Shown one piece after another: positions 20,096 to 45,565 of a stretch of DNA of 45,565 nt (position 1 is the first letter of the stretch; every line of letters starts with the position of its first letter). A program made the position numbers and the translations under genes. The notes beneath the pieces are model-generated. The model was not told where the DNA came from and made no database searches. It saw only the letters and a program-made list of their open reading frames with translations. The stretch covers positions 1 through 45,565 of the forward strand of contig JAZDJU010000057.1 in assembly GCA_043803685.1 (NCBI GenBank), written 5' to 3'. The DNA is from Candidatus Omnitrophota bacterium (GTDB taxonomy: Bacteria > Omnitrophota > Omnitrophia > Omnitrophales > Aquincolibacteriaceae).

Positions 20096-23000
20096 ATGAG
20101 AATACAAACCACTCCCTTCGGGAGCAATCCATTCAAACGAGGTGTCGCTATTTTTACCGCGGCCCTCTTTCTGTCCACATCCCTATTTAACTACGCTCCG
20201 AGTGCATTCGCCCAGTCCCAATTCCAATCGCCGTCTTCATCTGACCAAGTTCGCGGAGGGAACCCATCCGGCAATCTCCATCGCCTAGACCGTGATCGTG
20301 AGATCCGGATCCCTCCCGAATTTGGAAAAATAGACGAAGTCTATTTTGAGCCACGAACCACGAGCCACGAACCACGCAGTGTGGCCCATGGCCCGTGGCC
20401 CGTGGATCAGAAGACGATAGTCTTCATCCAGGACGCCCACGACTCGCTGGAGGCGCAGGAGAACATCGCGAAGATCATCGATCACCTGGTTACGAACTAC
20501 GGCGTCAAGACTGTCTTTGAAGAAGGTTATGAAGGACCGGTTCCCACGGACAAGTATTTCGGGGACATTCAAGATCCGAAGCTCCGCGAGAAGGTCGCGC
20601 GATTTTTCATGGATCACCTGCGCATCGGTGGCGCGGAGTATGCGCACATTAATCGGGACACGATCCACGGGACACGTGCCACAGGAAAAACGGGGGACAC
20701 GTACCACGAACCAAGGGCCACGGAAAAGCTTGTGAGTGGCTCGTGGAACGTGGCTCGTGGAACGGATTGGAATTTGATCGGCGCGGACTCGCTCAAACTC
20801 CACAAAGAGAACGTCGACCAGTACCGGCTTTCAGCGGCCAAGAAAGACGCCATTACGAAAGATCTCAAGGCACTCGACCGGGAATTCAAAACACTCGCGG
20901 GCGCGCGTTTTCCGAAGGAGTTCAAGGAATGGCTCAAAGTAAAAGAGCAGTTTGACGCGAAGAAGATGGATCTGTTTACGTATTTAGCAAGGACGCTGCC
21001 CTTGCTTGAGCCACGCACCACGGGCCACGGGCCACGAAGTGCGAAGGACCAGGCGTGGATCGTGGATCGTGGATCGCGTTCCGGTCTTTTACGTTTCATC
21101 CTCGAGGCCATCAAAACCAACGACCCCGTCGTGATCGAGAAAGCCAAGCAGATCGACGCGCGCGAGGTCTTCAGTGAACTTCTCAAGCTCGAGCAGGCGA
21201 TGGCGGAAACTTATCTCGAAGACGCGGACGATAAGCAGCTTTTTGAATATTACAAGGTCCTCGGACTTCTCCGGCGGCTGAACGATCTTCAGGTGTCGCA
21301 GGAGGAATTTACGGCGCTTCGCGCTAGTCTTGAGTTGGGGGTTGGGAGTTCAGAGAAGTCCTCCGAACTCAAGTCTCCGAACTCCGAACTATTTCATACG
21401 CAGGGCATGGCGGAGTTCATTCACAAGCAAACGCGCAAGACGCTCATTCTCTCGAGGATGTGGGAGCAGAATATTCAGGATGCCGTCAAATTCTACGAAA
21501 TAGCCTCGGCCAGAGATGGCGCGCTCTCGGAGGCGTTGGATCAGTATTTTTTAGCGGAAAGCGATAAGCGTACAGCGGTAAGTAAAAACGTGAGCGCCGA
21601 ATATAACGCTTACCCCTTACCGCTTACCGCTGACACGAGGACAGCCATCCTCGTGTACGGCGGATTCCATAAGGAAGCGATCAAACGGATTCTTGAGGCC
21701 AAGGGGTTTTCTTATATCGTTGTGAGCCCGCGCATCACAAAGCCCAGTCCGCGCCACGAAGAGTTCTATAAAAAACTCATGACGGATGGCGCTTTGCCAT
21801 TTGAAAGATCGATCGCTTCGGGTTTGGCGACCGCCGCCCGCAACCTGACCCTTTACAGCGGTATGCCCGACACCGTGGCTCGCGCCGAAGTCCGCGCCGT
21901 CTCGGACGCTCTTCTCGCCAATCCCCAGGCTGATCTCGGAACTTTAGACCGCCAGCTTTCCATCGCACGACGTCCAGAGGGAGAAGTTAGAGCGGCGGAT
22001 TCGTTTCGTTCTTTGGCGGGAGTCCAAGACAAGGCCAGGTCGGAGGTGCGGGGGGCTCTATCGTGGTTGGAGGGGATGAAAGAAACGATCGGGGAATTTA
22101 TGGCTGTCGGCCAGGCTCTTTACCCGCCATTCATTTTCTGGCCCATTTTGATTGTGATGGGGGGAGGCATCTTCATGATCGTCTATGGGGGTATTTTTCG
22201 GCCCCTCCAGTACTTCTTTTATTTCCGCAATGAAAAACAAAAGCATCAATTGTTCAAAGATAGGCTCGCCGATTTTTTAAACAATCAGCGGAATGGCCAA
22301 TGGCAAGAACGCCCCGAAGAGGCCAAGGCAACGATTGCTTCCTTTCTTGAAGAACTGGATCGTAAAGAATTCTTTAAGAGACCTTTGCCTATCGCGATCG
22401 GGATCCTCAATCAATACGGGTCTGGGATCGGGGCCCCGATCCTTGTGGCGAAGCTGGACGCATCGTCAACCGGGATAATGTTGCGAAGCTTTTTTGGGCT
22501 GATTAACGCATATCTTGGGGAGAAAGAACATGCCAGTTATTTTTCTCACCGGTTCGATCAATCAGTCGACCGCTATTTCACCACCGGACGACGGTCGGGG
22601 GGAGAGGTTGGGGTTCGCTCGGAGGTGCGGGCCGCCTCAGGAGATCAGGCGAGCCTCGCCTCTCAAAAAGAGAGGCGGGAGCAGCAAACCCCCGTCAATT
22701 ATAAATCCCTACTTAATGATATTTGGCAGAGCATTCCTAAAGAACAGAGAGGAACAAAGGTTGAATATATCGTCCTACCCGAAGAGGATGGAAAACAGTA
22801 CAGGGCTTCCGTAACATTTGAACTCTTTGGGAAAACATGGATGTTTACGGCGACACAAACACAGCCGGATCGTAAATGGGCGGAACGTGAAGCTGCTTAT
22901 GTGGCTTATGAAGACGTTGCCTTTCGAGATCTTCTTGCTTCAAAAAATATCGCTCTGCCGCTTCCACAAACCAAACTTAATGAGAAAAGTGCCAGTTTCA

Positions 23001-45565: not shown

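Follow-up and report, generated by a model that had tools for sequence, protein, structure and literature searches.

A genome-specific pentapeptide marks module boundaries in giant multi-enzyme genes of Omnitrophota, which may encode cellular polyprotein precursors

The stretch of DNA analysed here (the window, 45,565 nucleotides) is the entire contig JAZDJU010000057.1 of a Candidatus Omnitrophota assembly with 133 contigs and 2.89 Mb (C57 in our numbering, in which other contigs are cited likewise). Behind some 20 kb of ordinary genes lies a single giant open reading frame (ORF) on the plus strand, which listing and translation trace from an ATG at 20096 to the contig end at 45565. It holds 8,490 codons and no in-frame stop, its stop-to-stop frame opens at 20090, and it is still open at the 3' end; since the window is the whole contig, the gene has been truncated by the assembly. 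There are no Ns in the window, and in-frame matches to Pfam, NCBIfam and PDB entries extend from residue 1072 to residue 7882. The ORF is thus confirmed as genuine: an uncultured Omnitrophota bacterium carries this giant gene, truncated here, which belongs to a known kind, the giant multi-enzyme genes of this phylum. A preliminary description made from the letters alone had already recognized the open frame, a Sec-type signal peptide at its start and a series of unrelated enzymes in place of adhesin or nonribosomal peptide synthetase/polyketide synthase repeats. Our translation, a reading of the N-terminus by eye and matches to several different families bear this out. What that description missed are the features that define the gene: a junction motif, a conserved head family and a genome-wide set of such genes.

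The junction motif is a pentapeptide, R-[S/A]-E-x-R with x mostly V or M, that recurs between the modules of the protein in 21 copies. Fifteen of these are strict RSE[VMI]R sites, and the count reaches 21 once RAE.R and an A, L or G at position 4 are allowed. Genome-wide, the strict form was found 115 times in 28 ORFs of at least 1,400 aa (107,905 aa), compared with 12 times in all the remaining open frames of at least 100 aa, which total 1,720,938 aa. Residue shuffles of the giant ORFs (200 shuffles) gave a mean of 0.19 sites and a maximum of 2. Across 1,055 sites four of the five residues are near-invariant: positions 1, 3 and 5 hardly vary, position 2 is S or A, and position 4 is V, M, L, A, I or T. 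Outside the motif these sites carry slight extra information at -1 and +1 only, where small residues are favoured. In the 20 residues before a motif, S, P, A and T are over-represented and aromatics (Y, W, F) and C under-represented. The median distance from one motif to the next is 216 aa in this genome and 358 aa in its relatives. The third codon positions of the motif vary, which indicates that it is not a DNA repeat.

Genes that carry the motif almost always begin with the same domain, which we call the head. Among the 21 ORFs of at least 2,000 aa in this genome, 13 have the head, each with at least four motifs, and the seven with an intact 5' end and no head have no motif at all; the remaining one (C12, 5'-truncated, with no head in the part present) has two. 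Heads start giant ORFs on C47, C49, C34, C59 (two), C67, C80, C98 (two), C114 and C123, and are found in two contig-end fragments. Overall, the motif is almost confined to about 17 giant ORFs, every one of which opens with the head if its start is intact. With 75,276 codons in total, the giant head-and-motif genes fill 7.8% of the assembly. A second class of giant ORFs in the same genome (C75, C72, C86, C130, C106, C31 and C60; 2,285-5,861 aa) lacks both head and motif, and several of its members have signal-like starts.

The N-terminus of the head, judged by eye rather than with a signal-peptide predictor, has basic residues K14 and R15, about 16 hydrophobic residues and then A-F-A followed by Q. 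A hydrophobic 12-mer is found at the N-terminus of 136 of 150 family representatives. The strings QDAH (112), FEEGYEG (141), GGAEYAH (178) and GGFHKE (522) are conserved. Searches of Pfam, NCBIfam and PDB gave no match to the head, and the best profile comparison with PDB reached an E-value of 0.8. One of 32 members matched PF04187 (ChaN, of the Tiki superfamily) weakly over the second half of the head (E 8.5e-5), and the two sub-threshold PF04187 matches in this genome both fall in heads. A likeness to the Tiki/ChaN/TraB superfamily could be argued from these weak matches and from conserved His and Glu residues that might form a metal site. However, every PF04187 match lies under the family cut-off, the profile search of PDB was empty, and PF01963, PF18950 and PF05139, which we take to be related families, had no match in this genome. 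The first junction motif of the window's ORF lies at residue 596, at the head end, and the second at residue 648; across the family, the first site has its median at position 542. The head also contains three H-[E/G]-P-R-[S/A] inserts, at 20366-20380, 20705-20719 and 21026-21040 (residues 91, 204 and 311). Close head relatives share the 4-mers HGPR, HAPR and SHEP, and the insert at residues 189-222 is absent from most heads.

The family extends well beyond this genome. A search with residues 1-1686 gave matches in 41 of 41 genomes of the order, and nearly all of those listed involved the head and nearly all lay in long open frames, the longest of 23,964 aa. When 1.84 billion cluster representatives were searched exhaustively and without a profile, 3,935 head homologs were returned at E<=1e-3 and 290 at E<=1e-30. 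The named representatives of the family all come from Omnitrophota. The statistics for public representatives given here rest on the 150 listed of these 3,935. The head is N-terminal in all 150. When no motif was assumed, the commonest 4-mers in most of the long representatives were pieces of R[SA]E.R. The 150 sequences hold 793 motifs in 398,246 aa, compared with 9.4 in shuffles, and of the 86 that reach 2,000 aa, 76 have at least three motifs and none is without one. At least two motifs were present at 68 of 80 species-representative loci. Record titles of head relatives read Candidatus Omnitrophota or Omnitrophica, with several "uncultured bacterium" and one "Planctomycetales", and the ESM Atlas neighbours are Omnitrophota. 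These titles and neighbours, together with the giant multi-enzyme ORFs documented for the phylum, support the preliminary placement of the window in an Omnitrophota lineage with very large multidomain genes.

The content between the ends of these proteins turns over rapidly. When 174 family proteins were cut at their motifs, 1,073 modules were obtained in 629 clusters, of which 527 were singletons. The head was present in 169 of the 174 proteins. Second in frequency is a tail family of about 200 aa, which sits at the extreme C-terminus of 29 proteins and has the signature Y-x-V-I-S-x-A-A; in this genome two ORFs end in it, one on C84 and one on C47. Modules of the APH-type kinase, HAD and HD families come next. 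The nearest full-length relative of the window's ORF by head (G011:C57, 8,820 aa) ends in the tail signature and matches that ORF only in the head (645 aa at 54% identity) and in 51 aa of a J-domain.

Other forms of punctuation were also seen. A head-bearing gene of another lineage (L018-L019, G029:C31) has G-[S/A]-S-L-G at 24 sites with fairly uniform DNA (GGC TCG TCG CTG GGC), and a head-bearing gene of a further lineage (L099) has x-G-F-G-A at 10 sites; the first site is again at the head end in both. Three head-bearing ORFs of 1,600-3,800 aa (L076 and L089, from one metagenome-assembled genome (MAG), and L083) have no or one R[SA]ExR and no obvious alternative recurring motif; perhaps they are exceptions, or their code is more degenerate. 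A public protein of 7,810 aa (P0002) has no head (profile probability 0.1%) and one module in common with the window's ORF. It is punctuated with R-x-S-S-S-G (14 SSSG) and R-G-S-A-S-G (7), and punctuation is therefore not tied to the head family.

Several lines of evidence place the motifs at the limits of protein-sized units. No Pfam domain spans a motif in the uncut giant ORF. Of the high-scoring segment pairs between family members, 27.5% start within 15 aa after a motif (3.2% at random) and 32.8% end within 15 aa before one (4.5% at random). Ten of 15 internal signals of the twin-arginine translocation (Tat) type lie within 40 aa after a motif, where 11.8% would be expected (binomial p 9e-7), and two more, at +54, are an orthologous pair. 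Two of four lipobox signals lie at +3 and +8, and two of three J-domains start at +4, the one in the window included; the third follows RAEKR. In this genome, a hydrophobic 15-mer follows within 35 aa at 11.3% of sites, compared with 2.8% at random and 0% before motifs. Among about 1,000 module boundaries examined, none had a stop codon, which implies translation as one chain. Neither Met nor start codons are enriched at +1 to +20 after motifs.

The residue at position 4 depends on the genome. Val and Met are preferred in this genome, and Ala or Thr elsewhere. Position-4 spectra of ORF pairs from the same genome have a mean cosine of 0.82 even when their heads are less than 30% identical (n=57), compared with 0.49 for pairs from different genomes whose heads are at least 45% identical (n=139). 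For example, one MAG has Leu at every counted site, written with all six Leu codons and in 29 distinct 15-mers over 31 sites. A genome-specific residue in mixed synonymous codons points to a trans-acting reader of the peptide, and these comparisons speak against an inert hinge as well as against a copied DNA site. The head itself was considered as the specific reader and is disfavoured, since the preference tracks the genome and not the head clade.

Codon choice in the motif is also biased. In this genome the first Arg is CGY at 86% of sites, compared with 43% in other Arg-Ser pairs, and Val is GTG in 59% as against 26%. Serine is never AGY in motifs of this genome (32% elsewhere) and is AGY at 8 of 79 Ser sites in relatives. 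Codons at position 4 tend to end in G, the last Arg is rich in CGG in relatives, and Thr at position 4 in G011 is ACG at 16 of 17 sites. These biases recur in relatives and in four other genomes, with the first Arg as CGY at 77-95% of sites. The tRNA set of the genome is ordinary. No inverted repeats are positioned at the junctions, and the GC-matched difference in folding energy of junction hairpins was -0.26 kcal/mol genome-wide (n=156) and +0.47 kcal/mol in this ORF (n=17). Among 12 head-and-motif genes, no upstream 9-mers are shared.

Coordinates of the head, junction motifs and modules in the window's ORF are collected in Table 1.

Table 1. Features of the giant ORF and its upstream region, in window coordinates
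Feature	Residues	Coordinates	Strand	Basis
Best sigma-70-like promoter match, TTGACC-16-TATATT with TG, about 210 nt upstream of the ATG		19859..19886	+	Consensus match only
Sec-type signal-peptide-like N-terminus	~1-40	20096..20215	+	By eye
Head, conserved family-defining domain, no Pfam family	1-600	20096..21895	+	Homology searches
RAEVR, head end	596-600	21881..21895	+	Motif search
RSEVR	648-652	22037..22051	+	Motif search
One TM-like (transmembrane-like) segment (674-693), no family	653-845	22052..22630	+	Pfam scan, pattern search
RSEVR	841-845	22616..22630	+	Motif search
MBL/beta-CASP/RMMBL ribonuclease (aCPSF1/Cft2 type) after a 213-aa unassigned N-terminal part	846-1625	22631..24970	+	Pfam, NCBIfam
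RSEIR	1621-1625	24956..24970	+	Motif search
RAEVR	1643-1647	25022..25036	+	Motif search
RAEVR	1682-1686	25139..25153	+	Motif search
No family	1687-1947	25154..25936	+	Pfam, PDB
RSEAR	1943-1947	25922..25936	+	Motif search
Two TM-like segments; 46%-identical paralog in giant ORF of C80	1948-2364	25937..27187	+	Homology, pattern search
RSEMR	2360-2364	27173..27187	+	Motif search
Module 9, array of ~34-residue repeats, no trustworthy family	2365-3202	27188..29701	+	Repeats by eye
RSEMR	3198-3202	29687..29701	+	Motif search
No family	3203-3544	29702..30727	+	Pfam, PDB
RSEVR	3540-3544	30713..30727	+	Motif search
No family	3545-3936	30728..31903	+	Pfam, PDB
RSEVR	3932-3936	31889..31903	+	Motif search
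Membrane module, HEIGH and two TM-like segments, no Pfam family	3937-4288	31904..32959	+	Pattern search
RSEMR; J-domain begins 4 residues on	4284-4288	32945..32959	+	Motif search
J-domain protein, PF00226 E 1.2e-28, profile 1-63 of 63	4289-4419	32960..33352	+	Pfam, NCBIfam
RSEVR	4415-4419	33338..33352	+	Motif search
NUDT9-type ADP-ribose pyrophosphatase-like Nudix	4420-4763	33353..34384	+	PDB 1q33 E 2e-9; weak PF00293
RSEIR	4759-4763	34370..34384	+	Motif search
RSELR	4769-4773	34400..34414	+	Motif search
Signal/TM-like start (4791-4809) and zincin-like domain, invariant HExxH	4774-5335	34415..36100	+	Alignment, pattern search
RSEVR	5331-5335	36086..36100	+	Motif search
CPBP/Rce1-like intramembrane protease	5336-5565	36101..36790	+	Pfam, NCBIfam
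RSEMR	5561-5565	36776..36790	+	Motif search
No family	5566-5742	36791..37321	+	Pfam
RSEGR (variant)	5738-5742	37307..37321	+	Motif search
RSEMR	5770-5774	37403..37417	+	Motif search
PrmA-like S-adenosylmethionine (SAM) methyltransferase and C-terminal domain recurring at ORF end and on C84	5775-6591	37418..39868	+	Pfam, NCBIfam, clustering
RSEVR	6587-6591	39854..39868	+	Motif search
HEWGH, no family	6592-7180	39869..41635	+	Pfam, PDB, pattern search
RSEMR	7176-7180	41621..41635	+	Motif search
Last module: HEAT/mTERF-like repeats and second copy of the PrmA-module C-terminal domain	7181-8490	41636..45565	+	Pfam, homology

Many distinct enzyme families tile the ORF and none dominates. By Pfam, NCBIfam and PDB sequence searches, those recognized are an MBL/beta-CASP/RMMBL RNase, a J-domain, a Nudix domain, a CPBP/Rce1-like protease, a PrmA-like methyltransferase and mTERF/HEAT-like repeats. 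No Pfam family was found at E<=0.01 in 9 of the 16 scanned pieces, and six other modules had no match in PDB by sequence. Pattern searches listed three HExxH segments (HEIGH, HEEGH and HEWGH), a fourth string, HEDNH, that is not counted among them, and seven TM-like segments. The top NCBIfam model for the beta-CASP module is aCPSF1, the archaeal form, and its closest relatives are stand-alone bacterial "Cft2 family / dsRNA-specific ribonuclease" proteins of other phyla; on this similarity, the module may have been acquired horizontally. Orthologs of the zincin-like module were seen solely inside giant ORFs of three genomes of the same genus, and it has no stand-alone relatives at E<=1e-8. Modules 7-9 (residues 1687-3202) have a match in one of 40 related genomes. 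Module 9 has about 20 repeats and draws numerous spurious stretch-less Pfam matches. The module at residues 3545-3936 is probably the part in common with P0002, a match that was located by eye.

The 20 kb upstream are occupied by ordinary chromosomal genes: SulP, a HemN-like radical SAM protein, rubrerythrin, a His-phosphatase, a sodium:solute symporter, a B12-radical SAM enzyme, UvdE, an amino-acid permease and a Polysacc_synt flippase. A tRNA gene (5622-5694, plus strand; RF00005, 63 bits) lies between the His-phosphatase gene and the next ORF. It is the only Rfam match in the window, and there is none in the giant ORF. Two frames overlap at 67-1218 (plus) and 226-1944 (minus); family matches (SulP and STAS) fall on the minus strand only, and the plus-strand ORF is probably not a gene. 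Inside the giant ORF, promoter-like sites (20, compared with 14.5±3.8 in shuffles) and terminator-like sites (31, compared with 25.1±6.0) show no real excess.

The preliminary description had proposed translating the frame and extending the contig to the stop codon. The translation succeeded; the extension failed, as no overlapping contig was found. The last 300 nt of the window match just 96 nt at 85% on C84. The contig end falls inside the paralogous C-terminal domain of the last module, where identity over the last 450 aa is 53% with C84 and 37% with the internal copy. C84 was consequently rejected as a continuation, the end matches being paralogs. Positions 1-4575 of C84 form the 3' end of another family member, in which mTERF-like repeats and the shared C-terminal domain (53% identity) are followed by two junctions and then the tail; by analogy of sequence, this suggests what follows beyond the end of the window. 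One public DNA run, and no RNA run, was listed as carrying ORF sequence. The related reads of that run (0.10 word share) are diverged fragments only, with 72 of 92 pieces below 90% identity and none spanning.

These comparisons show, at the level of sequence, a motif that is confined to one gene family, marks module boundaries, is conserved as amino acids and is genome-specific at position 4. We lean modestly towards reading the gene as a cellular polyprotein precursor that would be cut at the motif sites by a sequence-specific, trans-acting endopeptidase; we infer the cutting itself from the pattern of sites. One chain would be translated, comprising an exported head of about 600 residues, a series of mutually unrelated protein-sized modules and a tail, with each module set off by R-[S/A]-E-[V/M/I/L/A]-R in a linker rich in Ser, Pro, Ala and Thr and poor in aromatics. 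The endopeptidase would recognize the motif and release separate proteins, which could then be targeted by their own N-terminal signals. The scissile bond possibly lies after the last Arg, because small residues are favoured at +1.

A number of observations weigh against a precursor of this kind. No C39, S8, C14, C11 or CHAT peptidase was found in the genome, which is 91% complete, in searches that gave matches in control genomes, and no conserved gene stands beside the heads (the best family was found at 7 of 68 loci). Ordinary proteins show no avoidance of the motif (12 sites, with 10.5 expected), and certain motif matches fall within folded domains, as in the tail. Conservation of sites is partial: a motif falls within ±15 columns in a homolog for 60 of 171 sites (35%), compared with 8.1% of control columns. 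The excess of hydrophobic 15-mers after motifs is not seen in the ORFs of nine relatives (1.9%, 1.7% at random) and is weak in public representatives (3.8% against 2.5%, p 0.07; 1.0% before motifs). Sec-type internal signals can act without a free N-terminus. The stand-alone relatives of the beta-CASP module are 790-880 aa long with a different domain order, and the ends of the module are misaligned with theirs. Finally, a site read purely as a peptide would fail to explain the codon constraints in the motif.

The same observations can be set against other explanations. An uncut, membrane-associated multi-enzyme scaffold, in which the pentapeptide, repeated within flexible hinges, would serve for docking of or recognition by a chaperone, a secretion factor or a modifying enzyme, seems unlikely to us, if worth keeping in mind. 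The published accounts, in the parts consulted, treat the giants as single membrane-associated proteins, and such a scaffold would agree with the empty peptidase searches, the lack of motif avoidance in the rest of the proteome and a linker composition that suits a flexible hinge; the Gly/Ser-rich motifs of other lineages (G[SA]SLG, GFGA, R.SSSG) also look like linkers. However, Tat and lipoprotein signals and J-domains right behind motifs would make little sense thousands of residues into an uncut chain, the modules exchange as autonomous units, and a plain hinge has no need of an exact, genome-specific pentapeptide held through synonymous change. It is improbable, in our estimate, that the motif and its preferred codons are read co-translationally or as RNA, whether by a StopGo-like bond skip, a pause, a tRNA requirement or an RNA site. 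Such reading would account for constraints beyond the peptide (Arg as CGY, no Ser as AGY, Val as GTG, Thr as ACG), but third positions are otherwise free, with 25 of 25 and 29 of 31 junction 15-mers distinct in two genomes, and the tRNA set, the hairpin and Rfam searches and the lack of Met enrichment offer nothing in its favour. We know of no bacterial StopGo. A bolder form, in which the ribosome itself would read the motif, is a long shot: the nascent R-S-E-x-R, in combination with its favoured codons (CGY for the first Arg, a final G at position 4, frequently CGG for the last Arg), would trigger the release or skipping of one bond. If it were true, ultra-small bacteria would make a dozen proteins per initiation without stops, by a counterpart of the viral 2A "StopGo" tuned in each genome.

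At the level of DNA, the motif could be a junction scar or microhomology that serves to shuffle cassettes among giant genes and does nothing in the protein. Homology does break at motifs, cargo turnover is extreme (most clusters are singletons, and the nearest head ortholog shares 51 aa of cargo), and the motif in G029 and one 15-mer in another genome are fairly uniform as DNA. Nevertheless, nearly all junction 15-mers differ within a genome while the peptide stays invariant, and a genome-specific residue drawn from six codons cannot be a copied DNA site; we regard a scar as very unlikely. That the frame is misassembled or non-functional is scarcely credible. The contig does end inside a paralogous domain and public reads gave diverged fragments only, but a 25.5-kb stop-free frame has in-frame domain matches throughout, and the same architecture recurs in 41 of 41 related genomes and thousands of public proteins. 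The preliminary description had proposed an effector arsenal from an Omnitrophota lineage, and as a whole this interpretation stands in its lineage part, with evidence both ways for the arsenal. A constant exported head with hypervariable cargo resembles, by analogy, polymorphic or MARTX-type effector carriers. On the other hand, the cargo has Tat and lipoprotein signals typical of the cell's own envelope proteins, and no toxin or defence family was matched in the giant ORF, where PADLOC gave one generic methyltransferase-type match.

Giant genes fill a large share of small Omnitrophota genomes, and the fate of their products is an explicit open question in the literature. A strict, genome-flavoured pentapeptide at module boundaries in thousands of proteins amounts to a map of candidate cut sites. 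With these sites, the giants can be split into foldable units, metaproteomes can be searched for neo-N-termini, and the reader can be hunted by its covariation with the position-4 residue. They also allow a test of bacterial cellular polyproteins as an alternative to operons, and the question of cleavage is now testable.

Giant proteins of this phylum have been described before. In the parts consulted, West-Roberts et al. (2023, bioRxiv 10.1101/2023.11.21.568195) report giant multi-enzyme "Archaeovorins" of Omnitrophota, suspect cleavage by C39/S8 domains and state that the cleavage points are unknown. The searched text of Nielsen and Lui (2026, bioRxiv 10.64898/2026.06.07.730766) defines a "multi-enzyme metabolic cluster" class and suppresses internal signal-peptide calls as artefacts; it is without the terms polyprotein, linker, cleav-, proteoly-, motif and fusion. 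Seymour et al. (2023, PMC10066038), as far as seen, call the functions unclear and have no words for cleavage, linker or polyprotein. The obstacle named in the consulted part of another article (PMC11573180) is unknown protease motifs. Like the published giants, as described in those passages, the window's gene comes from the same phylum and tiles one ORF with different enzyme domains (methyltransferase, Nudix, peptidases), and both have a domain-free N-terminal region beside a signal peptide, scattered TM segments and suspected cleavage. The published sizes are more than 30,000 aa (West-Roberts) or at least 10,000 aa (Nielsen and Lui) in the passages seen; here at least 8,490 aa are encoded up to the contig end, and the nearest full-length relative by head has 8,820 aa. 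The published giants are said there to have C39/S8 and SecA-like domains, whereas PF03412 and PF00082 have no match in this genome or ORF; no SecA-like domain turned up in general Pfam scans of the ORF, with no search aimed at it. A junction motif, head family or tail is not described in the passages searched. In literature searches, RSEVR and RSEMR strings among the matches listed were unrelated abbreviations, and "Omnitroph" with "polyprotein" or "cleavage site" gave nothing relevant. As far as we searched, a punctuated head-cargo-tail architecture with a genome-specific junction code is not in print.

Two better-characterized systems offer comparisons. The MARTX toxins of Vibrio are giant polypeptides with conserved ends and variable, recombining effector domains that are released by cuts in linkers. 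Their repeats are glycine-rich, their internal cysteine protease, activated by inositol phosphate, cuts after Leu, and they are secreted by the type I route. Genes of the family described here similarly encode a single giant chain with variable, recombining domains between conserved ends and, on our reading, inter-domain cuts. The likeness is one of analogy only: glycine-rich RTX repeats, a cysteine protease domain and type I secretion were undetected in Pfam scans of the window's ORF, which has instead a strict pentapeptide with a putative genome-specific reader and a Sec-type signal on the head. Viral polyproteins are cut at short recurrent motifs, for instance by picornavirus 3C, by potyvirus NIa, and by flavivirus NS3 together with host signal peptidase. 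In contrast to these, the genes described here lie in a cellular genome that has about 17 of them, their cargo is hypervariable and not in a fixed order, and no protease was identified in the chain. Shared with the viral systems would be one translation unit that gives rise to many proteins, a short lineage-specific code at the junctions, and internal signals that follow them.

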